Assembly (NCBI GenBank): GCA_040222015.1 | Contig: JAVJWO010000033.1 | Location: forward strand, 1 to 42,414 | DNA from: Coleofasciculus chthonoplastes F2-STO-03 | GTDB taxonomy: Bacteria > Cyanobacteriota > Cyanobacteriia > Cyanobacteriales > Coleofasciculaceae | Length of the DNA: 42,414 nt | Direction: 5' to 3' | Part shown: positions 1,475 to 34,683 of the stretch, in pieces | Layout of the letters: each line of letters opens with the position of its first letter | Numbering within the stretch: position 1 is the stretch's first letter | Made by a program: the position numbers and the translations under genes | The notes under the pieces: generated by a model | Database searches by the model: none | What the model saw: only the letters and a program-made list of their open reading frames with translations | Told to the model about the DNA's origin: nothing

Positions 1475-2785
1475 ATGAACTACGGCGACTTACTTCGTTG
1501 AAGCCGCTGTTTCTGACGTTTCTTCGCCCCTAGTTGCTTCATACTTCCGTATGCAGTAGGGCTAGGCAACTCGGCGTCTAAAGAGGACAGTTCCTGCCCC
1601 CTTGCCCAAATCTCGTTGACTTGAGCAGCATTTACGTCTCTATCCTCAACATGATTACAGTCAGGATTAGAGCAAACATGAACTCTATCTGCTAAGGTCT
1701 TGGGAGTCAGTTCCCAGCACTTAGCACATCGCTGAGTAGGTTTGAGTTTCTGTGTTGGTGACTCGACATAGAAGCCATTAGCTTCAGCCGCTTTATAGGT
1801 TAACAAGTCTCCAATCATACCAAAACCAACGTCAAGGATAGACCGATTTAATCCAGCTTTCTGTAGTTTTCGTTTACCCTTCTTGGCTTTGCCTGTCATT
1901 TTTTTTACATTTAGCTGTTCACCAGCGATTAGGCTATTACGGCTGACTATATCACTGGTTGTCTTGTGCAGCCAATCTTCCCGCTGTCGGGTGACTTTCC
2001 GTTGGAGTTTAGAAACTCTCTTCCATTCCTTTTTCCAGCGTCTTGAGGCTTTAACTTTCTTGTTCCTGTTAGGGGGTCTCTTGCGTCTCAAACGCTTTGA
2101 AGCCACCTTGACCTTTTTATGCCCCTCCTTAATAAAGTCTGGTTTAGGAATTTTCTCACCAGTCGAAAAAGTTATCGCGTCTTTACAACCCAAATCTATT
2201 CCAATAGAACCTGTACCCGTTTGACGAGTTGGTTCACATTGTACAGTTATTGATGCATACCATTTACCATTCCTAAAGAAAATTGTACAGGTTGTTGGAA
2301 TTCCCCATGTCCTGGCTTTACCTCGGATATGAATTGTCTCTCCCAAGTCTCTCAGCTCCAGATGACCATTTTTGTCATTAGAGGAGACCCGCCAACTTTG
2401 TTTATTAGGATATGTCCAACCTGCATATCGTCGTTTGGCTTTAAATTTGGGATGTTTACCCAAACCCTTAAAAAAACGTTGATAGGCTATATCGACACGT
2501 TTTAATGTAGCTTGTAACGTCTGAGAACCTAATTCTGCATACTCAACCCAAACTTTTTTAAACTCAGGCAAACAGTTCTGTTGTTCAAAATAATCAACAG
2601 AATAACCAAAGTGTTTGTACTGTGTCCTACGGTTTGCAATAGCCGCATTGTATAGGTCACAGTGCATTTTTCTTGCCCAATGGAGTTTGTCGCATTGGGA
2701 GTTGTTTGGATAAAGTCTGAAAGTCACTCGGCGTGTTAGCATCTTCTATCCGGCTCCGGCTTACTTCATTGAGGTTCCGGAGATA
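1475..2785 (-). mobile_element. tnpB-only (IS1341-like) IS200/IS605 element; left boundary approximate
   Basis: No tnpA. Related subterminal hairpin cores CTTACTTCRTTGA at 1489-1501 and 2760-2772. The minus strand ends ..GTAGTTCAT just after the tnpB stop. Confidence 0.75.
1480..2742 (-). CDS. tnpB: RNA-guided endonuclease TnpB (IS200/IS605 family)
   Basis: N-terminal TFRLYP, RuvC I GIDLG, RuvC II AGEQL, zinc ribbon CAKC..CSNPDC, RuvC III DRDVNAA. Confidence 0.96.
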   Translation of the reverse strand: MLTRRVTFRLYPNNSQCDKLHWARKMHCDLYNAAIANRRTQYKHFGYSVDYFEQQNCLPEFKKVWVEYAELGSQTLQATLKRVDIAYQRFFKGLGKHPKFKAKRRYAGWTYPNKQSWRVSSNDKNGHLELRDLGETIHIRGKARTWGIPTTCTIFFRNGKWYASITVQCEPTRQTGTGSIGIDLGCKDAITFSTGEKIPKPDFIKEGHKKVKVASKRLRRKRPPNRNKKVKASRRWKKEWKRVSKLQRKVTRQREDWLHKTTSDIVSRNSLIAGEQLNVKKMTGKAKKGKRKLQKAGLNRSILDVGFGMIGDLLTYKAAEANGFYVESPTQKLKPTQRCAKCWELTPKTLADRVHVCSNPDCNHVEDRDVNAAQVNEIWARGQELSSLDAELPSPTAYGSMKQLGAKKRQKQRLQRSKSP

Positions 2786-8663: not shown

Positions 8664-9152
8664 TTACTCTCCAACCCGGTTCAGCGCTTCTTGATAGAGC
8701 GATTGGCTGAGGCGAAATTTACCTTGATTTTGTAAGGCGTCTAGTTGTTCCTTTAGAGTTATAATCAAACCCTGTTGTTTCGCCCAAATTAGAATTCCCA
8801 CCGTACCTAATACAGGTAAACCCATTTGCCGCGCTACTCGCCGTGCGTTCTTCTCATCTAGTAAAATAGCGTCTACAGGGTTTTCAGCAACAAGAGCGAT
8901 CGCTTCAGCTTCCCCTTCATCCAGTTCTATCCTTAACAGCGATATTACAGACGTGTTTGTCACTTGACGAATAGTCAGCCATGATGCTGAAGCCACATCC
9001 TGTGCGCCCGGTTGTCCTTTTCCAGTTTCGACAACTTCTCTCCAAACGGCTTGAGGGAGAAACACACCATCAGGAAATCGCTGGTGCAACAGAGAAAGCT
9101 GCCCAATTGTACTTAGGGCAATTAAAATTGAAGAATTGGTAACGGCTCTCAA
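8664..9152 (-). CDS. DUF3368 PIN-domain protein (putative toxin)
   Basis: LDEGEAEAIALV, ILLDEKNARRVA, GTVGILIWAKQQGLI. Overlaps the upstream gene by 4 nt. Confidence 0.88.
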   Translation of the reverse strand: MRAVTNSSILIALSTIGQLSLLHQRFPDGVFLPQAVWREVVETGKGQPGAQDVASASWLTIRQVTNTSVISLLRIELDEGEAEAIALVAENPVDAILLDEKNARRVARQMGLPVLGTVGILIWAKQQGLIITLKEQLDALQNQGKFRLSQSLYQEALNRVGE

Positions 9153-9409
9153 CCTAAAGACTCCAGTGTTTCAAGGTCTGCTTCCAATTCTTCTAGATCA
9201 TAGCTCCGTTCAATCCCTTCTTGACCTAACAACTCGTGAAATTGCCATTTCGTCATTTGTGCGAGTTCCCGGGCTTTGCCGAATGATAGTATTCCCTTTT
9301 GGTATAATCGGATGGCGAGTTCCTGACGCAGACGGGGAAGGCGTTCGGTTGGTGGTACTCGCAACGCTTCGGCAAGGTTATCGTGAATTTCGAGAGTTAG
9401 TTTGGTCAT
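9149..9409 (-). CDS. UPF0175 family protein (putative antitoxin)
   Basis: ELAIRLYQKGILSFGKARELAQMTKWQFHELL..Y..EELEADL. Confidence 0.88.
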   Translation of the reverse strand: MTKLTLEIHDNLAEALRVPPTERLPRLRQELAIRLYQKGILSFGKARELAQMTKWQFHELLGQEGIERSYDLEELEADLETLESLG

Positions 9410-9863
9410 GGTAATTATCTAATTTTGACATTCTGCATTAATTCTACCTATACTATAAGGAATACTGCATAGATACCCGTAATTATAACATGGAATTTAG
9501 TAGTTTTAAGATGAAATTAAGCAAAAAAGAGATGAGTTATATGAAAAAGACAAAGACATTAATAAATTGCCAAGTTATTTACAAAATTTAGAAGTCATAA
9601 GTGTAATACAGTTAGTCGTGTCTTCAGCTAAATCAGGATTAATTTCTTAGCGGTTCGTGTAAGAGTTAGGTTAACGACGCATAAACTTGAATCAGTACCA
9701 AGGAAGGTTGACAAAGCGGTAACGATCGCCTTTCACAAGGTTTATAGGTATTTCTACTCAACGCCTATAAGGATTTCTGATAAAGCCCCTGGGGTTGATC
9801 GTGTAAAAATGAAGAAACTATAAATCGTTTTAATAAACGTTGCTGATACAGGAGTCAACATCA

Positions 9864-11582
9864 ATGGTAGTACTCACCGATCGCACCCAGAAGCGCTTAA
9901 CTATGCAGACGGGGGAAATCGCGCCAGATACAACGGCTATCCGTTCCTTAGACTGGGATCGTGATCGCTTCGATATTGAGTTTGGGCTGCAAAACGGCAC
10001 CACCTATAACTCGTTCCTGATTCGGGGTGAGAAAATTGCCCTGGTGGATACCTCCCATGAAAAGTTTCGTGAACGTTACTTAGATACGCTTAAGGGGTTG
10101 ATTAAACCCAGCCAGATTGATTATCTGATTATTAGCCACACGGAACCCGATCATAGTGGCTTAGTCAAGGATATTGTCCAACTCGCACCAGAGATTACCG
10201 TCGTCGGGTCAAAAGTGGCGATTCAATTCCTGGAAGACTTGGTGCATCACCCCTTCAAACGGCAAATCGTGAAAAATGGTGACCAACTGGATTTAGGCAA
10301 AGGGCATGTGTTGGAATTTGTCAATGCCCCCAACCTCCATTGGCCCGATACTATCTTTAGCTACGATGCCGGAACCCAAGTGATGTTTACCTGTGATGCC
10401 TTTGGTATGCATTACTGTTCTGATAGCACCTACGACGAAGACATGAGTGCCATAGAAGCCGACTTCCGCTTCTACTACGACTGCTTAATGGCACCCAATG
10501 CCCGTTCCGTTCTCTCCGCCCTGAAACGGATGGATAAACTGGGAGACATCACCACCGTCGCCACGGGTCATGGTCCCCTATTATTGCATCATGTCGGCGA
10601 ATGGGTAGATCGGTATCGGCGCTGGAGTAAAGCCCAGGCAAAAGCCGAAACCTCCGTGGTTGTGTTTTACGTATCTGATTACGGCTATAGCGATCGCCTT
10701 TCCCAAGCCATTGCCCGAGGAATTACCAAAACTGGGGTGGGCGTGGAAATGATGGACTTAAAATCGGCTGATCCACAGGAAGTCCAGGAAACCGTCAGTC
10801 GCGCCGGGGGAATTGCGATCGCGATGCCTCCCGCCTCGAATAAAGCCGCCACCGCCGCTGTGAGTACCATCCTCGCTGCTGTGAAATCCAAGCAAGTCGT
10901 GGGTATCTTTGAATCCTATGGCGGAGATGACGAACCCATTGACCCCCTACTGAGTCAATTCCGCAACCTCGGACTCAAAGAAGGATTTGCCGCGATTCGG
11001 GTCAAAGAAACCCCAACCGAAGCCATCTATCAACTCTGCGAAGAAGCCGGAACCGATATGGGGCAACTCCTCACCCGCGATCGCAATATCAAGCAACGGA
11101 AATCTATCGATAATGACCTAGAAAAAGCCCTAGGACGGATCAGCGGCGGACTTTATATTATTACCGCCCAAAAAGGTGACATTAAGAGTGCCATGTTAGC
11201 CTCCTGGGTATCCCAAGCCAGCTTCAAACCCCTCGGCTTAACCATCGCCGTCGCTAAAGATCGGGCGATTGAGTCTTTGATGCAAGTTAGCGATCGCTTT
11301 GTGCTGAATATTCTACAAGAGGGCAATTATCAGGCATTAATGAAGCACTTCCTCAAGCGTTTTCCCCCTGGTGCCGATCGGTTTGAAGGAGTGAACACGC
11401 AAACAGCGACGAATGGATCACCGATTCTTACCGATGCGTTAGCTTATGTGGAATGTAAGGTGGAAAGTCGGATGGAGTTGAGTGACCATTGGATTGTCTA
11501 CGCCTCTGTTGACGCTGGACGAGTGTCTAAGGCGGATGCGTTGACGGCGGTTCATCATCGCAAAGTGGGGAATTACTATTAA
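9864..11582 (+). CDS. flv3: Flavodiiron protein Flv3
   Basis: IRSLDWDRDRFDIEFGLQNGTTYN, canonical HTEPDH diiron motif, flavodoxin and flavin-reductase domains. ATG 9864 follows an AGGAG. Confidence 0.9.
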   Translation: MVVLTDRTQKRLTMQTGEIAPDTTAIRSLDWDRDRFDIEFGLQNGTTYNSFLIRGEKIALVDTSHEKFRERYLDTLKGLIKPSQIDYLIISHTEPDHSGLVKDIVQLAPEITVVGSKVAIQFLEDLVHHPFKRQIVKNGDQLDLGKGHVLEFVNAPNLHWPDTIFSYDAGTQVMFTCDAFGMHYCSDSTYDEDMSAIEADFRFYYDCLMAPNARSVLSALKRMDKLGDITTVATGHGPLLLHHVGEWVDRYRRWSKAQAKAETSVVVFYVSDYGYSDRLSQAIARGITKTGVGVEMMDLKSADPQEVQETVSRAGGIAIAMPPASNKAATAAVSTILAAVKSKQVVGIFESYGGDDEPIDPLLSQFRNLGLKEGFAAIRVKETPTEAIYQLCEEAGTDMGQLLTRDRNIKQRKSIDNDLEKALGRISGGLYIITAQKGDIKSAMLASWVSQASFKPLGLTIAVAKDRAIESLMQVSDRFVLNILQEGNYQALMKHFLKRFPPGADRFEGVNTQTATNGSPILTDALAYVECKVESRMELSDHWIVYASVDAGRVSKADALTAVHHRKVGNYY

Positions 11583-11624
11583 AACGCAGAGGTTCGCAGA
11601 GGTCAACGCAGAGGTTCGCAGAGG
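11583..11624 (+). repeat. Array of 4 x CGCAGAGG (left flank of GxxExxY gene)
   Basis: Units start at 11585, 11595, 11607 and 11617. Confidence 0.95.
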
Positions 11625-12002
11625 ATGACTGAGAATGAGGTGTCGGGAAAAGTGATTGGGTTGGCGATGAAGGTACACACGGCGTTGGGACCGGGTTTAT
11701 TGGAGTCAGCTTATGAAGCCTGTTTGAGGTATGAACTGAATAAGGCTGGTTTAAACTTTGAACCCCAGAAACCATTACCGTTAGTCTATGAAGAGATTCG
11801 TCTTGAATGTGGATATCGAGTTGATCTCCTCGTCGAAAACAAAGTCATGGTTGAACTCAAAGCCGTTGACGCCCTGCATCCCATCCACACCGCCCAACTC
11901 CTAACCTACCTCAAACTCTCCCACCATAAACTCGGACTCCTGATCAACTTCAACGTCATCCATCTCAAAGACGGCATCAAACGAGTCGTCAATCACCTTT
12001 AA
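11625..12002 (+). CDS. GxxExxY protein (PD-(D/E)XK nuclease superfamily)
   Basis: GPGLLESAYE, RVDLLVENKVMVELK, QLLTY, GLLINFN. Confidence 0.95.
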   Translation: MTENEVSGKVIGLAMKVHTALGPGLLESAYEACLRYELNKAGLNFEPQKPLPLVYEEIRLECGYRVDLLVENKVMVELKAVDALHPIHTAQLLTYLKLSHHKLGLLINFNVIHLKDGIKRVVNHL

Positions 12003-12005
12003 CCC

Positions 12006-12047
12006 CCTCTGCGAACCTCTGCGCTTCCCTCTGCGCCCCTCTGCGTT
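12006..12047 (-). repeat. Array of 4 x CGCAGAGG, inverted (right flank of GxxExxY gene)
   Basis: CCTCTGCG at 12006, 12016, 12028 and 12038. Confidence 0.95.
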
Positions 12048-12076: not shown

Positions 12077-13801
12077 ATGAACCCTCCTACCCCTCGCGAC
12101 GTTCAAGTCCTCCCCATCGCCACCGACACCACCGTTCTCCGTTCCCGCACTTGGGATAGACTCAAATTTGAAATCGAATATGCCCTGCAACGCGGCACCA
12201 CCGCCAATTCCTATCTGATTCAAGCGGATAAAATCGCCCTGATTGATCCTCCGGGCGAATCGTTCACCGAAATCTTTTTAACCGAACTGCAACGCCGGAT
12301 TGACCCCAAACAAATCGATTATGTGATACTCGGTCACGTTAATCCCAACCGAGGCGTTACTCTAAAAGCCTTACTCAAACTCGCCCCTCAGATACAATTT
12401 GTCTGTTCCAATCCTGGTGCGATCGCGCTGCGTGGTATCTTAGATGCACCGGATTTAAAAGTAACGGTGGCGCGGGGGGATGAAACCCTGGATTTAGGCA
12501 AGGGTCATCATCTGCAATTTATCCCCACCCCTAATCCCCGTTGGCCCGACGCCCTTTGTACCTACGACCCCCACACTGAAGTTCTATTTACCGATAAGTT
12601 ATTTGGTGCCCATCTGTGTGGTGACCAAGTAATGGATGAAGGCTGGACAACAATTAGCGAACACCGCCGCTATTATTTCGATTGCGTCATGGCACCCCAT
12701 GCGCGACAGGTGGAAAAGGCGCTGGATAAGGTTGAGGAGGTGCAAGCAAGGCTTTATGCTACAGGTCATGGGCAATTGGTACGCTATAGCTTAATTCCCC
12801 TGACCCAATCCTATCGCCAGTGGTGTGAACGTCAAAAAACACAAGACATCACCGTCGCCCTGCTGTATGCTTCTGCTTATGGGAATACCGGTACCGTTGC
12901 CCAGGCGATCGCACGGGGGATTACTAAGGCTGGAGTTGGTGTAGAATCTATTAACTGCGAAATCGCTGACCCGGAGGAGATTCGCGCTGCTGTGGAAAAG
13001 GCGGAGGGGTTTGTTATGGGTTCTCCGACGTTAGGGGGTCATGCACCCACCCAGATTCAAACGGCTTTGGGGATTGTTTTATCCACGGCGACGAAAACTA
13101 AACTGGCGGGGGTTTTTGGGTCTTTTGGCTGGAGTGGTGAAGCGATTGACTTGATTGAAAATAAGTTTAAGGATGCAGGATATAAGTTTGGCTTTGAGAC
13201 GATTCGGGTTAAGTTTAAGCCCACGGAAACCACACTAAAATACGCCGAAGAAGCGGGAACGGATTTTGCCCAAGCCCTGAAGAAAGCCAAGAAATCCCGC
13301 ACATCCCGCCAACCCGTCAGTGATGCCCAAGTTGCCCGAACTGAACAGGCTGTGGGGCGGTTAATTGGGTCACTTTGTATTATTACGACGAAGCAGGGAG
13401 AACTTACGGGGGCGATGTTGGCAGATTGGATTTCCCAAGCCACGTTTAATCCACCGGGGTTAACGATTGCGGTGGCGAAAGACCGGGCGATTGAGTCGTT
13501 AATGTATCAGGGTGAGCAATTTGTGGTGAATATTTTAGAGGAAGGGAAGCATTTGGGGTTAATGAAGCATTTCCTCAAACCCTTTGCCCCAGGGGAAGAC
13601 CGATTTGCGGGGGTGGCGACGGAGGATGGTGACAATGGTTGTCCGATTCTTAGCGATGCTTTGGCGTATGTGGAATGTACGGTGGATAATCGGATGGAAT
13701 GTGGGGATCATTGGTTGATTTATGGGGTGGTGACGAATGGCAAGGTGTTATCGGAGGGGGTAACGGCGGTGCATCATCGTAAGTCGGGGACACATTATTA
13801 G
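12077..13801 (+). CDS. flv1: Flavodiiron protein Flv1
   Basis: LRSRTWDRLKFEIEY, non-canonical HVNPNR metal motif, same three-domain architecture as Flv3. Confidence 0.9.
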   Translation: MNPPTPRDVQVLPIATDTTVLRSRTWDRLKFEIEYALQRGTTANSYLIQADKIALIDPPGESFTEIFLTELQRRIDPKQIDYVILGHVNPNRGVTLKALLKLAPQIQFVCSNPGAIALRGILDAPDLKVTVARGDETLDLGKGHHLQFIPTPNPRWPDALCTYDPHTEVLFTDKLFGAHLCGDQVMDEGWTTISEHRRYYFDCVMAPHARQVEKALDKVEEVQARLYATGHGQLVRYSLIPLTQSYRQWCERQKTQDITVALLYASAYGNTGTVAQAIARGITKAGVGVESINCEIADPEEIRAAVEKAEGFVMGSPTLGGHAPTQIQTALGIVLSTATKTKLAGVFGSFGWSGEAIDLIENKFKDAGYKFGFETIRVKFKPTETTLKYAEEAGTDFAQALKKAKKSRTSRQPVSDAQVARTEQAVGRLIGSLCIITTKQGELTGAMLADWISQATFNPPGLTIAVAKDRAIESLMYQGEQFVVNILEEGKHLGLMKHFLKPFAPGEDRFAGVATEDGDNGCPILSDALAYVECTVDNRMECGDHWLIYGVVTNGKVLSEGVTAVHHRKSGTHY

Positions 13802-13833: not shown

Positions 13834-13878
13834 AACGCTCCAGGTAGCAGAGGGAAAGCGCAGAGGAACGCAGAGGGG
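13834..13878 (+). repeat. Solo CGCAGAGG array, first units degenerate
   Basis: TTTTTTTAACGCTCCAGGTAGCAGAGGGAAAGCGCAGAGGAACGCAGAGGGG. Confidence 0.85.
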
Positions 13879-14267: not shown

Positions 14268-16157
14268 ATGGAATTGATTACCGGGTTAGGAGGGTTTGTT
14301 TTTGTCGCCGCCCTATCGGGGATTATTGGGAATAAGGCGGATTTGGGGTTGGATACTTTAATCAGGATGATGAATCGCCTGAAACCTGGGGAGACGCCGA
14401 CGATACAAACGGCGGTGGGGCGGGCGTTTTTGTTGGCGCAGCAAAGTTTGGTGGAAGAGTGTCTGCGTGAATTGATTGGTGAGAATAAAAGTATTTGGGA
14501 TTGTCCACCTCAGTACAAAAATGAGGTAAGTTGGCTAGACCACAAGTTAAAACGGCTAAAGGCGGATTTACAGAAGCTGGAATTGGGGGAATTTGGCGAA
14601 TTAGCGGTGACACCTGTGGCTGATATTGACTCCCTGTTAACCCCAGATGGGGCGTTGGTTGGGGATACGGTTCAGGTGGTACGTCAGCAACTTAAGGTAA
14701 TTTTACAGCAGGAGAATGCGATCGCACTTTACCAAACCAAGGCTGTAACTCCCCAAGTGGGCTTGTTTGAACGGATGTGTGCCTGTTTTGCAGTGGAGAT
14801 GCAGACGAATCCGGTACTGCGGGAGATGATTCAGGGACAATTGCTAACTCAGATTAATGCTAATTTGAAAACGCAGCAGGTGACGGTAAAGGATTTAACT
14901 CACTCCTTGCAGAATTTGGCGCGGGATGTGGTGCGCGATATGGGAGATATTAAGGAGTCTTTGGAACGCCTCAAGCATCAAATGGCGGCTTTATCAGTAC
15001 GTCAACTACCTGTTCCCGATGATTTCCGGTGGATTGTTGAGGATAAGACGAAGGGATTTGTCGGGCGGGAATTTGTCTTTGATGCCATTGAGGAATTTTT
15101 CCAGCAGCAGCGTAAAGGCTACTTTATTATCGAAGCCGAACCGGGGATGGGCAAAAGTTCTATCCTGGCAGAATTTGTGCGGCGGAATGATTGCATTGTC
15201 TATTTCAACCAGCGCAATGAAGGGATAACCAGCGCTGAACAATTCCTCCGGAGTGTCTGTATCCAGCTTATTCAAGATTACGAACTATCTCACTCTCAAG
15301 ACATCCAACCCGAAAATACGTGTAATAGTAATTTTTTCAAAAACCTACTCACTGAAGCGACAGGGAAACTGAAGTCAAATGAACGATTGGTCATTGCCGT
15401 TGATGCTTTGGATGAAGTTGACTTGAGTAGCCAGAGTCGGGGTGCTAACGTCCTTTACCTACCTGAAGATTTGCCCGATAATGTCTATTTAATTGTCACA
15501 AAACGACCGTTACCACCTGACCAACTACCGTTGCGGGTGAATAATAAGCGGCTTTTTGACGTGATGCAGTATCCGGCAAGAAACCAAGAAGACGTAGAAG
15601 CTTATATTCGACAGCGCATCAATGGGGTAGGGGCTTCGGTATCCGTATCTATTCGGCAGTGGATTCAAAGTCGGGGTGCTAATGAAGAGGAATTTGTCTC
15701 GACATTGGTTGAAAAGAGCGAAGGAAACTTCATGTATCTGCGCTATGTATTGGATGACATTGAAAAAGGCGCATATCCAAAATTAGAGATTCGGGGTTTA
15801 CCCAGTGGTTTGCAAGACTACTATTACAAACACTGGGAACGCATGGGCATGAATGACAAGCCCCTGTTTAAAATCAAAATTGTCTATATCCTGTCAGAAT
15901 CTCCTATACCTATCCCCTTTGAGGAAATTGTGGCAATTCTCGACGCTGATGGTGAGGAAGAAAAAGGACTACCGGTGAGGGTGCAAGCGGTACTTGATGA
16001 ATGGATACAGTTTTTACGGGAAGAGGAAAAGTACCGACAAACATTCTATAGCCTGTATCATAGCAGCTTCCGGGATTTTCTGCGGAATGAGAAGACAGTG
16101 AAGCGTGCGGGGATAACGCTTCAGGGAATTATTGAAATGATGGTAAATAGTAGGTAG
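14268..16157 (+). CDS. NACHT/STAND-type P-loop NTPase with helical N-terminal domain
   Basis: FVGRE, Walker A AEPGMGKSS, Walker B IAVDALDE, SEGNFMYL, LP.GL..YY, YHSSFRDFL. Confidence 0.85.
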   Translation: MELITGLGGFVFVAALSGIIGNKADLGLDTLIRMMNRLKPGETPTIQTAVGRAFLLAQQSLVEECLRELIGENKSIWDCPPQYKNEVSWLDHKLKRLKADLQKLELGEFGELAVTPVADIDSLLTPDGALVGDTVQVVRQQLKVILQQENAIALYQTKAVTPQVGLFERMCACFAVEMQTNPVLREMIQGQLLTQINANLKTQQVTVKDLTHSLQNLARDVVRDMGDIKESLERLKHQMAALSVRQLPVPDDFRWIVEDKTKGFVGREFVFDAIEEFFQQQRKGYFIIEAEPGMGKSSILAEFVRRNDCIVYFNQRNEGITSAEQFLRSVCIQLIQDYELSHSQDIQPENTCNSNFFKNLLTEATGKLKSNERLVIAVDALDEVDLSSQSRGANVLYLPEDLPDNVYLIVTKRPLPPDQLPLRVNNKRLFDVMQYPARNQEDVEAYIRQRINGVGASVSVSIRQWIQSRGANEEEFVSTLVEKSEGNFMYLRYVLDDIEKGAYPKLEIRGLPSGLQDYYYKHWERMGMNDKPLFKIKIVYILSESPIPIPFEEIVAILDADGEEEKGLPVRVQAVLDEWIQFLREEEKYRQTFYSLYHSSFRDFLRNEKTVKRAGITLQGIIEMMVNSR

Positions 16158-16173
16158 CGAGGGGCGGTTGGTC

Positions 16174-18315
16174 ATGGGGAAGTTAGCTGAATCGTTAAAC
16201 CGCCTACCCGCAGGCAGTCGGCTGTACAGGTTACAGACGCGACCACAATTGCTGGCGCAGTCTGGTCAGGCTCACCGTTTGTTTGAGTTACTGACTGACT
16301 TTGATTTCATTGAAGCTAAGGTTTCTCATCCTGAGATCAAGTTACAAGAGCTAATTGAGGATTATGACCTAGCTTTTGAGCCTAAAGTCCTGATTTCTGG
16401 GGAGAAGGCGGAAATTCCCAGACTGATTCAAGGGGCAATTCGGCTGTCAGCGCACGTTCTGGATAAAGACAAAACGCAACTGGCTGGGCAATTGATGGGG
16501 CGGTTGATGGTGTTTGATATGCCAGAAATTCGGGCGATACTGGAACAAGTGCAGCCAATAGAACCCTGGCTGCGTCCTATGACTCCTAGCTTACACCCTC
16601 CTGGCAAGCTGTTGCTACGCACTTTTGAAGGTCACAGGAGTTCAATAAGTTCTATTGTCGTCACACCCGATGGCAAACAATTAATTTCTGGCTCACTTGA
16701 TCACAGTATTAGAATCTGGAATTTTCAAACAGGAGAGCAACTACTAACTTTGACAGGTCATAGCGAATGGGTAAATGCCATAGCACTGACACCAGATAGT
16801 AAGCGAGTAATTTCTGGTTCATCAGATAAAACAATCAAAGTTTGGGATGTCAATACAGGAAGAGAAATTTTGACTCTTGAAGGTCATACAGATGCTGTCG
16901 TATCTGTCGCAGTTACGCCAGATGGCAAGCGGTTAATTTCTGGTTCATGGGATAAGACTATTAAACTATGGGATTTAGAAAACGGAAAAAATATAAAAAC
17001 AATAAAGGCTCATACAGATAGAGTAAAAATTGTCTCTATCACTCCAGATGATAAGTTGCTAATCTCTTCTGGATTAGAGGAGCAACCTATCAAACACTTT
17101 CCTTGTGACACTATAAAAGGCTGGAATTTGGCAGATCTAACAGAAGTTTTTACGTTATGGAGTAATACGGAGTTTCTGGAAAATATAGCGATCAGCCCGG
17201 ATGGAAAATATCTAATTTCTGCTGGAATTGACACGATCATTTGGAATCTAGAAACAAGAGAACATATTTTTACTTTCTGTCCAGAAATAGAACGGGTAGG
17301 ATCATCGGTAAGTACTCTGACAGTAACCCCCGATAGTAAGTTACTAATTTCTGGCTTAGCAAACGGTGTTATCCAGATTTTAGATCTGAATACGAAAAAA
17401 GAGCTTGTCACTTGGAACGGTCATGTTGGTGCGATATTTTCTTTGGTTATGACACCAGATGGCAAACATTTGATATCTGGTTCAAGTGACCAGACGATAA
17501 AAATTTGGGATTTGGAAGCCGTTAAAGCAAAAAAAATCTTGATTCAGAATGAACGTATAGAGGCGATCAAAACCATTACAGTGACACCGGATGGTCAACG
17601 AGCAATTTCTGGTTCAGAGGATGGTTACATTAAAGTCTGGAATTTAGAAAATGGAAAAAAATTAAATACATTTACAGATGTTAATAACTTTAGAAATTCC
17701 GTACATGATTTGGTCGTCACACCAGATGGTAAGCAAGTGATTGCTGGGTTGCGTTCTGGCAACATTGAATCCTGGAATTTAAAAACAGGAAAGAACCTAA
17801 AAACCTTTAAAGGTCATACCCGTCATGTAAATGCTATAGCAGTTACACCCGATGGTAAGCAATTAATTTCAGGTTCAGCAGACATGAAAGTCAAGATTTG
17901 GAATTTAGAAACCGGAGAGGAGGCTTTTACTTTTACAGAGCATACTGACTATGTATGGCATGTGAAAGTCACACCAGATGGTAAACATATAATTTCTAGT
18001 TCGATGAATCAAACTATTTATTGGGAACTCGAAACAAAAAAAATAATTTATACCCAAAACGGTTTTGCAAACTGGAGAAAGACAATAGTAGTTGATCCAC
18101 CTAGAAAATGGGAAATATATATTGTATCTGGTACAATAAAAATATTTGATTGGGAAACTAAAAAATTGATTACTAGTTTCACTGGAGATACTTGGTTAAA
18201 TTGCTATGCTGTAGCACCAGATGGGATAACGATTTTAGCAGGGGATCAGTCCGGAATGGTACATTTTCTGCGGTTAGAAAATAGCAGCGCATTTGGTAGC
18301 GGATGTAACAGATAA
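16174..18315 (+). CDS. WD40-repeat protein with N-terminal APAF-1-like helical domain
   Basis: LTDFDFIEAK..LIEDYD..AIRLSAHVL..QLAGQL, then a dozen or more (GH)..VTPDGK..ISGS.D..IK.W[DN] repeats. Confidence 0.92.
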   Translation: MGKLAESLNRLPAGSRLYRLQTRPQLLAQSGQAHRLFELLTDFDFIEAKVSHPEIKLQELIEDYDLAFEPKVLISGEKAEIPRLIQGAIRLSAHVLDKDKTQLAGQLMGRLMVFDMPEIRAILEQVQPIEPWLRPMTPSLHPPGKLLLRTFEGHRSSISSIVVTPDGKQLISGSLDHSIRIWNFQTGEQLLTLTGHSEWVNAIALTPDSKRVISGSSDKTIKVWDVNTGREILTLEGHTDAVVSVAVTPDGKRLISGSWDKTIKLWDLENGKNIKTIKAHTDRVKIVSITPDDKLLISSGLEEQPIKHFPCDTIKGWNLADLTEVFTLWSNTEFLENIAISPDGKYLISAGIDTIIWNLETREHIFTFCPEIERVGSSVSTLTVTPDSKLLISGLANGVIQILDLNTKKELVTWNGHVGAIFSLVMTPDGKHLISGSSDQTIKIWDLEAVKAKKILIQNERIEAIKTITVTPDGQRAISGSEDGYIKVWNLENGKKLNTFTDVNNFRNSVHDLVVTPDGKQVIAGLRSGNIESWNLKTGKNLKTFKGHTRHVNAIAVTPDGKQLISGSADMKVKIWNLETGEEAFTFTEHTDYVWHVKVTPDGKHIISSSMNQTIYWELETKKIIYTQNGFANWRKTIVVDPPRKWEIYIVSGTIKIFDWETKKLITSFTGDTWLNCYAVAPDGITILAGDQSGMVHFLRLENSSAFGSGCNR

Positions 18316-27856: not shown

Positions 27857-28231
27857 TTAAGCTGAACCCCTCACCCCCAGCCCCTCTCCCACGCCGGGGA
27901 GAGGGGCTGGGGGTGAGGGGGATATTAATCGAGGTAGATCATCTTGAATGGTTTCCCAAATTCTGGCTAGATCAATTTGAAAATATTCGTGAGTGACAAC
28001 ATTTAGCATCCCCGCCATCAGACGCCAAGGGATATCCGGATAGAGGTTCTGGATTTCATCAGGTATAGTTCTAGTTGCTTCTCCAATCACAACAAAATCA
28101 TAGAGAACTGCTTTAACAAGGGTTTCATTGTTTTGAAACTCCTCAAAGGTTATGTGGGCTGTACGTTGCTCAATTCCAGTTATGGATTGGAGAATATCTT
28201 GAAGGCGTAGCCGCCAATCTCTAGAAGGCAC
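27857..28231 (-). CDS. HepT-like DUF86/HEPN ribonuclease toxin, probably inactive
   Basis: VIGEA..IP..YPDIPWR.MAGMLNVVTHEYF. The Rx4H motif has Leu in place of Arg, and the C-terminus is repeat-derived. Confidence 0.85.
   Translation of the reverse strand: MPSRDWRLRLQDILQSITGIEQRTAHITFEEFQNNETLVKAVLYDFVVIGEATRTIPDEIQNLYPDIPWRLMAGMLNVVTHEYFQIDLARIWETIQDDLPRLISPSPPAPLPGVGEGLGVRGSA
27867..27920. repeat. Perfect 24-bp-stem G/C-rich palindrome inside the 3' end of the HEPN gene
   Basis: CCCCTCACCCCCAGCCCCTCTCCC-acgccg-GGGAGAGGGGCTGGGGGTGAGGGG. Confidence 0.9.
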
Positions 28232-28511
28232 GAATTGAATCCTTAAGTACAGGTTCTCGCAAATGTTCCTTCAACGCTTCCTGAGTTCCCAAATCCACAG
28301 TACACCCTAAAATATCTTCTAAATAATACTGCACTTGTAATAGTTGAAACAACCCCCCTGGTCTATTAAACTCTACCAAAAAGTCTACATCACTATTTGA
28401 ATCAGCCTCATCTCGTGCGACTGAACCAAACAAATCTAGTGATTTTACGCCCATGTCCTGTAATTGTTCTCGATGTGCGGCGAGAATGGCTAGTACCTTA
28501 TCTCGTTTCAT
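28221..28511 (-). CDS. MNT minimal nucleotidyltransferase antitoxin
   Basis: FGSVARDEADSNSDVD (GSx10DxD); overlaps the HEPN gene. Confidence 0.92.
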   Translation of the reverse strand: MKRDKVLAILAAHREQLQDMGVKSLDLFGSVARDEADSNSDVDFLVEFNRPGGLFQLLQVQYYLEDILGCTVDLGTQEALKEHLREPVLKDSIRAF

Positions 28512-31608: not shown

Positions 31609-31812
31609 CCTCACACCTCGGTTAAGATGAGTGCCACTGACTGGTATGCTGGTGGGCAATGCCCACCCTACAATATATCAACGGTTTCGACGATTTCCTA
31701 GTGCAAATTTTCAGTGCCATTCCAGTTAAGATGACAGCTTTCTCTCTAAGGTAACTTAAGAAACTCCGCTATAGTGAGTAGTTACTGGTTATTGGACAAT
31801 GAACAATCAACC

Positions 31813-34683
31813 ATGAACAACCGATTACAGTGGTGGAAAACGGGGAACCGCAAATATTTAGGTATTCTGGGGCTAATTTGGCTAGCCAGCGCGTTGTGCG
31901 ATCGCCTGTGGTTTGCGCTTGATAATTCTGTCCCTGGTTGGGATCAGGCGGATTACTTGACAGGTTCGTTAAATTATTGGCAAGCGTTGCAACATCCTGA
32001 GTGGTTCTCTGGGGAATGGTGGACGAATTTATGGCAACTTTCCTCTAAAATACCGCCTTTTACTTATATCGCTACCGCTATTATTCAACATATTGTTGGT
32101 CGGGGAACGGATCAAGCTACGCTGGTTCTTTTACTCTTTCATGCTATTCTTATCGGTTCAGTTTATGGCTTAGGTGTTCAACTTTTCAATCGTCGGGTTG
32201 GATTATGGGCGGCTGGATTAACGGTGCTTTTACCGGGACTCTATCGCTATCGTTTAGAATTCCTGCTGGATTATCCGCTGACGGCGGTTGTTACACTTAG
32301 TTTCTTCTGTCTCACGGTTTGGCGAAATCAACGGTTAACCTCGGTCATTGCTAAGTCACCATCCAATCACCAATTAGCAATAAGAAAAGAAAATAAAGCA
32401 TCATATCCTTTAATTTCTGCCTTAAAAAGGGGAACGATTCAATCCCTAGTCTGGGCAATAATTTTCGGCGTATCCCTAGGATTAGCGTTAATGGTAAAGC
32501 AAACGGCGCTATTCTTTCTATTTATACCGATTATCTGGGTTATCGCGGGGACGATTCGACGGCGAGATTGGGCAGGTTTGGTTCAGTTAATCGTGGGATT
32601 GTTGGTATCTTGGTTTATATTTTATCCCTGGTATCGCACTAACTGGCTACTCATTTTAACCTCTGGGAAACGAGCTACGTTAGATTCCGCGATCGCAGAG
32701 GGTGATCCAGCGCTGAATACGTTAGACGCTTGGCTGTATTATGGGAAGATTTTACCCTATTTGGTGTCGTGGGTTCTGTTGCTTGTCCCGATTGTGGGTT
32801 TGATTCTTTATTGGCGGAAAAAAGAGAGGGTTTGGGGTGGGGAAGGGGAGGATGTTTTTTCAACGCAGAGGGGCGCAGAGGTTAACGCAGAGGGGCGCAG
32901 AGGGTTTCAGAAAAGATATGGGTTGGGTAGGTTAGGTTGGTCTTTCGGTTGGCTTGCTGTGTTTGTGGTCGGGGGGTATTTCTTGTGTTCTCTGAATGTG
33001 AATAAGGATGCTCGTTATATTTTGCCATTGTTGCCTGTGTTTTCGTTAGTTTTAGCATCGGGTTTGGTTTTATGGCAAGGTGGTTGGGGTAAGTCTGTTC
33101 GCTGGGGTACGGTGGGGTTGGCGTCTGTGTTAATGGTGCTGAATTTGTTTCCTTTGGGCGGTGCTTTTTTAACTGAAGTTCTTGCGCCGCGTGTTCAACA
33201 TTTTCCTTATTTGGGACAACCTGTTCCTCTGGCTCAGGTGATTGATGAAATTATCCAAACTTCTCCGAATTTACAGATAACTTTAGGTGTATTACCGTCA
33301 ACTCCGGAAATTAATCAGCACAATTTAAATTATTATGGGGCGTTGCGGGATTTTCAGGTGTATGGGCGTCAGGTAGGGGTACGAGAGAAACAGATTGAAC
33401 AGGATGCGCGATCGCTCTCTTGGTTTGTGACGAAAACGGGTGATCAAGGATCTGTCCCTGAAGCGCAAGCGGCTATTGTGGAAAAGGTTGAAAAAGGGGG
33501 AGAGTTTCAACTCCAGAAGACTTGGAATTTACCTGATGGTAGTCTGCTCAAGCTTTATCACCGACATCAGCCATTTTTTGAGGTCACAACAGTCAACAGT
33601 AAACAGTCAATTGTAGGGGCGGATTTAAACCCAATTGTAGGGACAGATTTAAACCCAATTGTAGGGGCGGGTTTAGGAACTCAATTCAGATACTCACCAA
33701 TAAATGAACAACGAAACCCGCCCTCTTCACCAATAAATGAACAACAAAACCCGTCCTTATTCAACAGCCTACCGTTAAGCGTAGTCGAAGGGTTAAATAA
33801 AATTAAATTAAATCGGGTGATTGTCCCAGAGACAGCCCCTCCTGGTTTCCCTACACCTGTTACCTATGAATGGGCTGGGGATTGGCAACCGTTACAATCG
33901 GGAATTGTGTTATTAACCTGGCATTCGCTGGAAGGAGGATATCAATATCAATGGTTACACGATCATGGTATTGCCATGGGAAACTTGTTTCCGAAGTCAA
34001 CAAACAACCGTCAGCTATCAACCGTAACCAATCAATCGCCTAAATACCAGGTTATTGAACGAATGGCGATGTTACCTCCAGCAGATATCCCAGCCGGAAC
34101 GCATACATTAAAAGCCACCTATTTGAATCGAGAAACAGGGGAAACCTATCCGATATCAGTACCACCTGTGAGGATAAAGATTGCTCCAAAAGCACCTGCA
34201 ACACCTGCACCGGAATTAGACTTAATCACCCAATTTCGGACATTAGCCGCGACTTTGCCCAATGGTTCTGATTCCCTGGAGGCTATCTTTGAACAAACGG
34301 GGCGAATTAATCAGTATGACCCCATCCAAGATTATCTAGTGCAGGCAGATTTGGCGTTGACTCATCGGTTAAAGTTAGAACCAAAAAGGTTAGACTGGGC
34401 TTATGCCCTAGCGTTATCTAGGGTTTTACAAGTAGACTCTCAGAGTGCGATCGCGGCGTTAAAGCGGGTCGTCCAGCTTGATCCGCAAAATCCTTATGCT
34501 CATGCTTATCTTGCCTTCGTTTATTTATATGAATGGCGAGGTCAAGATGCCCAAAATGCGCTCAAGCCTGCCTTAAGTCTCAACCCAAATCTGCCAGAAG
34601 TTCAAGCCCTTTCTGGTGGTGCTGCCCTAATGCAAGGAAATTTAGTCAAAACCTGGTATTTTATTGAAAAATTGAGAAATTAG
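31813..34683 (+). CDS. GT39/ArnT-like phospholipid-carrier-dependent glycosyltransferase with C-terminal TPR
   Basis: WDQADY, KIPP, LDYPL, LALMVKQ, NKDARY, many TM helices and a TPR-like tail. Contains repeat-derived in-frame inserts. Confidence 0.88.
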   Translation: MNNRLQWWKTGNRKYLGILGLIWLASALCDRLWFALDNSVPGWDQADYLTGSLNYWQALQHPEWFSGEWWTNLWQLSSKIPPFTYIATAIIQHIVGRGTDQATLVLLLFHAILIGSVYGLGVQLFNRRVGLWAAGLTVLLPGLYRYRLEFLLDYPLTAVVTLSFFCLTVWRNQRLTSVIAKSPSNHQLAIRKENKASYPLISALKRGTIQSLVWAIIFGVSLGLALMVKQTALFFLFIPIIWVIAGTIRRRDWAGLVQLIVGLLVSWFIFYPWYRTNWLLILTSGKRATLDSAIAEGDPALNTLDAWLYYGKILPYLVSWVLLLVPIVGLILYWRKKERVWGGEGEDVFSTQRGAEVNAEGRRGFQKRYGLGRLGWSFGWLAVFVVGGYFLCSLNVNKDARYILPLLPVFSLVLASGLVLWQGGWGKSVRWGTVGLASVLMVLNLFPLGGAFLTEVLAPRVQHFPYLGQPVPLAQVIDEIIQTSPNLQITLGVLPSTPEINQHNLNYYGALRDFQVYGRQVGVREKQIEQDARSLSWFVTKTGDQGSVPEAQAAIVEKVEKGGEFQLQKTWNLPDGSLLKLYHRHQPFFEVTTVNSKQSIVGADLNPIVGTDLNPIVGAGLGTQFRYSPINEQRNPPSSPINEQQNPSLFNSLPLSVVEGLNKIKLNRVIVPETAPPGFPTPVTYEWAGDWQPLQSGIVLLTWHSLEGGYQYQWLHDHGIAMGNLFPKSTNNRQLSTVTNQSPKYQVIERMAMLPPADIPAGTHTLKATYLNRETGETYPISVPPVRIKIAPKAPATPAPELDLITQFRTLAATLPNGSDSLEAIFEQTGRINQYDPIQDYLVQADLALTHRLKLEPKRLDWAYALALSRVLQVDSQSAIAALKRVVQLDPQNPYAHAYLAFVYLYEWRGQDAQNALKPALSLNPNLPEVQALSGGAALMQGNLVKTWYFIEKLRN
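32862..32903 (+). repeat. Solo 4 x CGCAGAGG array, in frame within the glycosyltransferase
   Basis: Units start at 32864, 32874, 32886 and 32896; translated as TQRGAEVNAEGRRG. Confidence 0.95.

Follow-up and report, generated by a model that had tools for sequence, protein, structure and literature searches.

The Chi system of RecBCD and AddAB joins a short strand-polar octamer to a RecB-type nuclease, and recombination takes place near the site. Very short dispersed repeats occur in filamentous cyanobacteria, including in-frame insertions in genes; these cyanobacterial small dispersed repeats (SDR) were reportedly described by Elhai et al. in 2008, and neither a cognate enzyme nor a bias of the surrounding DNA is known to us for these repeats. 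The ORF-bearing intervening sequences of 23S rRNA hold a small ORF nested between inverted arms. The RAYT/REP system is described as a single-copy, mostly vertically inherited nuclease gene accompanied by a short dispersed repeat, with rare long-term horizontal transfer (bioRxiv 10.1101/119735; PMC3116915). The GxxExxY family, which comprises at least 8000 proteins among the matches listed, is entered with the function 'Unknown' and with multiple transfers in a table passage that mentions no repeats (PMC3424549).

In the genome analysed here (G000; other G-numbers denote the compared genomes), a GxxExxY gene is located between two flavodiiron genes and enclosed by inverted copies of a 42-bp element. 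The window, that is the whole stretch of 42,414 nucleotides that was analysed, contains the following features:

9840..11582, plus strand: upstream flavodiiron gene (host), with a flavin-reductase domain
11583..11624, plus strand: left arm, a 42-bp element made of AA and then four CGCAGAGG units, spacing 10/12/10
11625..12002, plus strand: GxxExxY gene, 125 aa; TIGR04256 / PF13366; minimal PD-(D/E)XK fold
12006..12047, minus strand: right arm, the same 42-bp element, inverted
12077..13801, plus strand: downstream flavodiiron gene (host), with a flavin-reductase domain
13834..13876, plus strand: solo array whose first half is a variant unit, which is found at other G000 loci too
32862..32903, plus strand: solo 42-bp array, in frame over 14 codons in a 969-aa PMT_2/TPR gene

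The first-pass annotation had described inward-facing arrays of four units on both sides of the gene with 10/12/10 spacing, and the unit starts in the left arm (11585, 11595, 11607 and 11617, plus strand) and in the right arm (12006, 12016, 12028 and 12038, minus strand) bear this out. The two 42-nt arms are 88% complementary, and the window holds 15 CGCAGAGG matches versus 0.73 expected from shuffles. The left arm abuts the upstream stop codon on one end and the GxxExxY ATG on the other, just as annotated. The cassette does not make up the whole gap between the flavodiiron genes, provisionally called flv3 and flv1 in that annotation, as had been claimed, since 29 bp lie between the end of the right arm (12047) and the downstream ATG (12077). 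On its own strand the right arm is preceded by a T-tract, as in typical solo copies. The spacing is identical in both arms but not special to the cassette: G000 contains one GxxExxY gene and 60 multi-unit arrays, and 37 of the 42 arrays with four exact units are spaced 10/12/10.

By its profile matches the 125-aa protein is a clear member of the GxxExxY / PDDEXK_3 family (TIGR04256: E 1.6e-45, 154 bits, cut-off 35; PF13366 PDDEXK_3: E 9.5e-44, 149 bits, cut-off 22). In a 57-sequence alignment G24, E27, Y30, D67, K79 and Q91 were invariant and E77 and Y95 nearly invariant, in agreement with the PD-(D/E)XK and QxxxY motifs annotated before; the acidic and lysine positions of the predicted active site (D67, E77, K79) are intact. 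The best Foldseek matches of the predicted structure (pLDDT 93.6) were lambda exonuclease and Cas4, with restriction-type nucleases and AddAB also among the matches; the top ones were PD-(D/E)XK nucleases, but every match was weak, with E no lower than 0.002 and Z no higher than 7.7. A search by sequence yielded no match to a solved structure. The named relatives at 97-99% identity carry the name Coleofasciculus. The cassette is an old resident here and under purifying selection, with a pN/pS of 0.04-0.06 for the gene against five genus copies. Broken copies were seen in G007 (frameshift), G024 and G111 (stops).

The analogy to RAYT/REP that had been drawn from the locus fits in organisation: a single-copy, vertically inherited gene is flanked by the dispersed repeat of its genome, which is present in many copies, and the variants of arms and dispersed copies match partially across genomes. 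Unlike in RAYT/REP, the protein has a PD-(D/E)XK fold instead of being a tyrosine transposase; TIGR04256 and PF13366 were its only matches, and a Y1/HUH tyrosine transposase was not recognized in it. The repeat also differs. REPINs consist of palindromic units in inverted doublets, whereas the units here are direct repeats that form a non-palindromic, phased array, mostly solo instead of paired, and the dispersed copies are positionally stable.

The linkage of gene and arms was followed in homologue loci, 73 of which were fetched and 68 kept after five with short flanks had been dropped; five of the 68 are from the same genus. A shared 7-mer in inverted orientation, with at least two copies per side, flanked the gene at 34/68 loci and was absent from all 372 shifted windows. 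Such arms were detected at only 1/146 neighbour ORFs. In a FastTree phylogeny of 97 proteins, with 87 tips labelled by arm class, the arm class changed four times, compared with at least 16 changes in shuffles and 26 changes of host phylum. Arm class thus tracks the protein tree across about ten phyla. Since gene and arms are physically linked, this agreement shows co-transfer and not specificity. The gene and its inverted arms almost certainly constitute a linked unit that travels together between phyla.

The array unit has the form CGCAGAGG in the cassette arms and CGCAAAGG in a variant. G000 contains 45 CGCAGAG arrays and no CGCAAAG arrays; in G023, both arms and most dispersed arrays have switched to CGCAAAG (69 arrays, versus 3 with CGCAGAG). 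The arm variant correlated with the genome-wide variant (rho 0.71; 32/38 genomes with enough repeats, related genomes not being independent). It equalled the major variant of the genome in 13/13 cases for GAG arms and in only 7/13 for AAG arms; the best-scoring gene alone was used in every genome except one. In the 301 genomes of the phylum, GxxExxY was present in 33/41 with at least five array matches versus 20/244 without array matches, a comparison confounded by kinship.

Arrays also occur in genomes in which the gene was not found. The family HMM recovered no GxxExxY in eight of ten re-checked genomes, mostly drafts, all eight of which contain arrays or arm remnants; one of these genomes, G123, has 145 array matches. 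The persistence of arrays and of the strand bias described below in such genomes favours the main rival explanation, according to which the arrays are polar sites for a host factor (recombination, repair, local replication, Chi-like) and GxxExxY is a passenger landing or recombining there. A host factor would also accord with the strength of the bias in cyanobacteria and its weakness elsewhere, and with array cores that are conserved far beyond neutral sites. It is harder to reconcile with an arm class that follows the protein tree, with genome-wide variant switches that often match the arms of the gene and with the joint occurrence of gene and arrays in the phylum; moreover, arm remnants at the flavodiiron site in G026 and G037 suggest that the gene was lost there. 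We consider this explanation unlikely.

A looser pattern recovered 53 near-full copies of the 42-bp element in G000, of which 50 are distinct in sequence and nine lie in frame inside ORFs of at least 150 aa. Each of the eight other genus genomes contains 26-59 array matches, and the repeat may be among the SDR repeats of Elhai et al. Three other inward-facing array pairs in G000, 2.5-3.8 kb apart, were rejected as cassettes; they enclose unrelated host genes (AAA/CHASE2; a protein without Pfam match; GH3 plus MFS). In six genomes, no arm of opposite orientation lay within 250 bp of 177 of the 180 arrays. The folding of single arms is weak (z +1.9, -2.0 and -1.0).

Such solo, single-orientation copies argue against a cassette acting at the RNA level like an intervening sequence, in which the arms would pair in the operon transcript and loop out the gene. 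The same holds for a bias that is independent of the strand of the neighbouring gene and for the lack of an Rfam match at the cassette. An RNA-level role would explain the precise fit of the arms between stop and start codons and the occurrence of a gene-less hairpin at the identical site in G037; it would also agree with the lack of a promoter-like site at the cassette. A terminator-like site was not found either. One contig from an RNA run spans the upstream gene and GxxExxY, which is not proof of one transcript, and read mapping gave one low-depth contig that omits most of the GxxExxY gene, a weak observation. In contrast to the 23S rRNA intervening sequences, the cassette is located between protein genes, its solo arms are abundant and its protein belongs to a different family. 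Taken together, an RNA-level cassette appears very improbable.

The positions of solo arrays were compared between genomes with the first 30 arrays each of G002, G003 and G004 (51, 62 and 32 in total). Of these 90 arrays, 59 were mapped to G000 by both flanks, 22 by one and 9 by none. The same site in G000 was filled for 53 of the 59, and clean empty sites were not found for any of the 90. The six arrays scored as empty were two tandem-duplication artefacts, one variant array and three larger replacements. In 44 orthologous array pairs the cores differed at 10/1408 bases and the 2-bp linkers at 36/150, with 12 double changes in linkers versus 4.3 expected. A variant unit occurs at five G000 loci, at one of which G002 has the standard array. 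These linker changes and the swap of that unit would fit an exchange between dispersed copies.

The array at 32862 was present in 9/9 genus genomes and in 0/20 family orthologues of the 969-aa gene. In family orthologues the loop of this protein (gene at window 31774-34683, linker at about 32800-32950) is occupied by other repeats, namely heptamer runs or a palindrome; it thus accepts inserted repeats of various kinds. Paralogous-looking proteins of 1500-1900 aa in G000 (C57:15095, C195:46723 and C214:40019) carry an array in frame in an apparently equivalent loop.

At the flavodiiron site, GxxExxY was detected in 7/9 genus genomes and in two other genera. The upstream partner is adjacent at 17 of the 30 downstream flavodiiron loci, and nine of these 17 junctions contain GxxExxY. 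Among the eight without the gene were a gene-less hairpin (G037), arm remnants (G022 and G026), a 60-bp spacer (G020), other repeats (G004, same genus) and unrelated inserts (G017 and G027). In G012 and G019, GxxExxY precedes the flavodiiron gene and the upstream partner is missing. In G037 (L050), the 117-bp hairpin takes precisely the position of the cassette; its two four-unit arms adjoin each other back to back and contain CGCAGAG as well as CGCAAAG units. Gene-less hairpins are rare. A tandem duplication of about 105-115 bp, which extends from the 3' end of GxxExxY through the right arm into the first codons of the gene that follows, is present in 5/7 genus carriers (L034-L038: G001, G005, G007, G003 and G002) and absent from G000 and G008. 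In G030 the flavodiiron gap (L059:1810-2400) holds a DUF559 gene enclosed by inverted palindromic arms of its own. This would be an analogous nuclease-plus-arms cassette of another family and hints at a wider class.

The varied slot contents, the duplications and the presence in most genus genomes indicate that the flavodiiron slot exchanges content and that the cassette is still an old resident. The first-pass annotation had proposed a mobile unit, to be recognized by empty junctions in relatives and to be discarded if the gene were vertically conserved at this locus. The junctions were filled differently but included no clean empty site among the 17, which makes a target-site duplication unreadable, and vertical conservation was found in part, within the genus and the two other genera. 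Present-day mobility is not borne out: the gene is kept at its site in most genus genomes, and neither these junctions nor the 90 solo arrays gave a clean pair of filled and empty sites.

The idea of an active cut-and-paste element that is bounded by arrays and has left solo arrays as recent non-autonomous insertions is opposed by the single gene copy, by its conservation at the same site in 7/9 genus genomes and by the shared positions of solo arrays. Matches were also found in just 8/72,556 plasmid records and in 0/50,697 phage records. The patchy presence of the gene at intact flavodiiron junctions, the in-frame 42-bp copies in nine genes and the mixing of phyla on the protein tree would suit such an element. 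Inverted terminal repeats surround a coding core as in a TIR transposon or MITE; multiple copies of the gene and clean empty sites were not found. We regard cut-and-paste transposition as highly doubtful.

The flanks of 51 solo arrays were G+T-rich on the array strand on both sides, fading over about 1 kb. At four-fold sites within 150 bp, same-strand genes (n=559) had frequencies of 0.07 for C and 0.43 for G, and opposite-strand genes (n=456) had 0.52 for C and 0.09 for G; the corresponding values in distant genes were 0.27 and 0.25. Two-fold sites shifted in the same direction, and the effect was gone by 2-5 kb. The skew was positive in 39/41 upstream and 33/37 downstream flanks and exceeded 0.3 on both sides in 19/31 arrays versus 50/1380 control gaps, independent of the orientation of the neighbouring gene. 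Simple promoters, terminators and origins, whose effects are one-sided or change sign, are ruled out by a bias that favours the same strand on either side. HIP1, abundant heptamer arrays and palindromic repeats showed no same-sign effect of the size seen at the arrays, and to our knowledge no strand-polar bias is known around REPs.

The bias was also present in each of the six genomes from which 30 arrays were sampled (0.12-0.58), and around arrays of the gene-less genomes the mean skew was 0.55 in G004 and 0.25 in G123. In G023, which has a coding-strand skew of its own, the orientation-averaged bias was 0.45 close to arrays and 0 at distances above 800 bp; a paired test of G023 and G000 orthologues was flat (18/34). 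Outside cyanobacteria the bias is weak, with 14/21 inward-arm loci positive and a mean of 0.05 (two of the 21 are cyanobacterial). Divergence was 0.12 near arrays and 0.14-0.16 elsewhere; since it is not raised, hypermutation near arrays is ruled out and the bias is directional. Singleton A-to-G changes amounted to 17/75 near arrays and 71/613 far from them; this is the direction predicted from the bias, but the counts are small and partly follow from base composition.

Within the cassette, third-position G+T of GxxExxY is 0.81 over the first 21 codons and drops to 0.10-0.19 over the last 42. The upstream flavodiiron gene rises to 0.60-0.76 in its last ca. 100 codons, toward the left arm, and in the downstream gene the values are 0.33-0.40 at the 5' end and, near the 13834 array, 0.87-0.88 at the 3' end. 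The first half of GxxExxY had the higher third-position G+T at 32/32 cyanobacterial inward-arm loci (mean difference 0.37) and at 8/10 other inward-arm loci. At two loci of distant GxxExxY clades, L019 (G030; 0.52 to 0.76) and L023 (G016; 0.59 to 0.70), the gradient is reversed and the arms apparently face outward, which a bias tied to the strand of the arms would predict; L020 is an exception.

The reversal of the bias at the GxxExxY midpoint between opposed arms, at every cyanobacterial inward-arm locus, argues against the converse order of events, in which the G/T bias came first or selection acted, and arrays settled or survived in G/T-rich tracts without any strand-specific processing. 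Such an order is likewise difficult to combine with the smooth decay of the bias with distance at synonymous sites. In the one gene for which orthologues with and without an array were compared, the 969-aa gene, the array-less orthologues were free of the bias: third-position G+T was 0.70-0.83 with the array (nine genomes of one genus) and 0.42-0.67 without it (20 genomes; one locus dropped). A bias that preceded the arrays would agree with the small same-sign skew of 0.13-0.17 at single octamer CGCAGAGG sites, with the unraised divergence and with the 5' end of the downstream flavodiiron gene, where 14 genomes with the arm and 15 without showed no difference (p 0.20). We judge this order of events improbable.

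A G+T excess is a signature of a strand that is left single-stranded or serves as repair template, as established for leading strands. The G/T bias suggests that one DNA strand is cut or exposed at the arrays, and we hold it rather probable that it reflects strand-specific DNA processing. With good probability, the GxxExxY protein is predicted to act on the arrays. The complete reading, in which the 42-bp array is a polar nick or recombination site and GxxExxY its cognate enzyme, is given a probability of about 0.45. With several GxxExxY subunits bound to the phased units, one strand would be nicked or resected. The CGCAGAGG strand would repeatedly become single-stranded or be used as repair template, and C-to-T/G and A-to-G/T changes would become fixed on it. 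Recombination or patch repair after the nick would turn arrays into recombination hot spots, from which they could spread and be homogenised by gene conversion. The gene itself would move rarely, via recombination between arrays and not by cut-and-paste. Nicking or resection followed by repair would also account for the linker exchange, the duplications and the exchange of slot content.

Such arrays resemble Chi in being based on a strand-polar octamer, and RecB-type relatives, AddAB and Cas4, are among the weak fold matches of GxxExxY. A strand-polar effect on flanking DNA, a trait of Chi-like sites, is present, and linker exchange and tandem duplications may be indirect signs of Chi-like recombination. 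Unlike Chi, the arrays have four phased units at fixed spacing, a helicase partner is missing and the gene lies between two sites. Also unlike that of Chi, their orientation apparently has no connection with replication, as no skew is left at distances above 2 kb. As a tentative extension, GxxExxY might be an array-guided strand-specific nickase or resectase that installs and services its own Chi-like sites, and the cyanobacterial sites might be local, directional points of entry for recombination or repair and in this way rewrite the substitution spectrum of host genes over about 1 kb on each side. If this were true, it would represent a class of selfish or domesticated elements that spread by gene conversion and leave a mutational footprint instead of transposing.

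In the literature search, which left subscription papers mostly outside, neither a connection of GxxExxY with repeats nor a description of the bias came up; the gene-repeat partnership and the strand bias are real and probably undescribed. A large family of unknown function thereby gains a candidate substrate and a predicted strand, and the strand-polar bias provides evidence, read from genomes, of an event on one DNA strand at repeats. In G000 the bias reaches into host genes at about 50 loci. If it holds, it would locally bias codon usage and base composition in cyanobacteria and would set the system apart from RAYT/REP.

The window contains a TnpB-like (IS605 OrfB) gene at 1480-2742 (minus strand) and two toxin-antitoxin-like pairs, UPF0175 + DUF3368 at 8664-9409 (minus strand) and a nucleotidyltransferase with a HepT-like RNase at 27857-28511 (minus strand). 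Directly behind the solo array at 13834, an AAA/NACHT-like ATPase gene is followed by a WD40 repeat gene (14268-18315, plus strand); a match to Avs1b in this region was weak and far below the cut-off.
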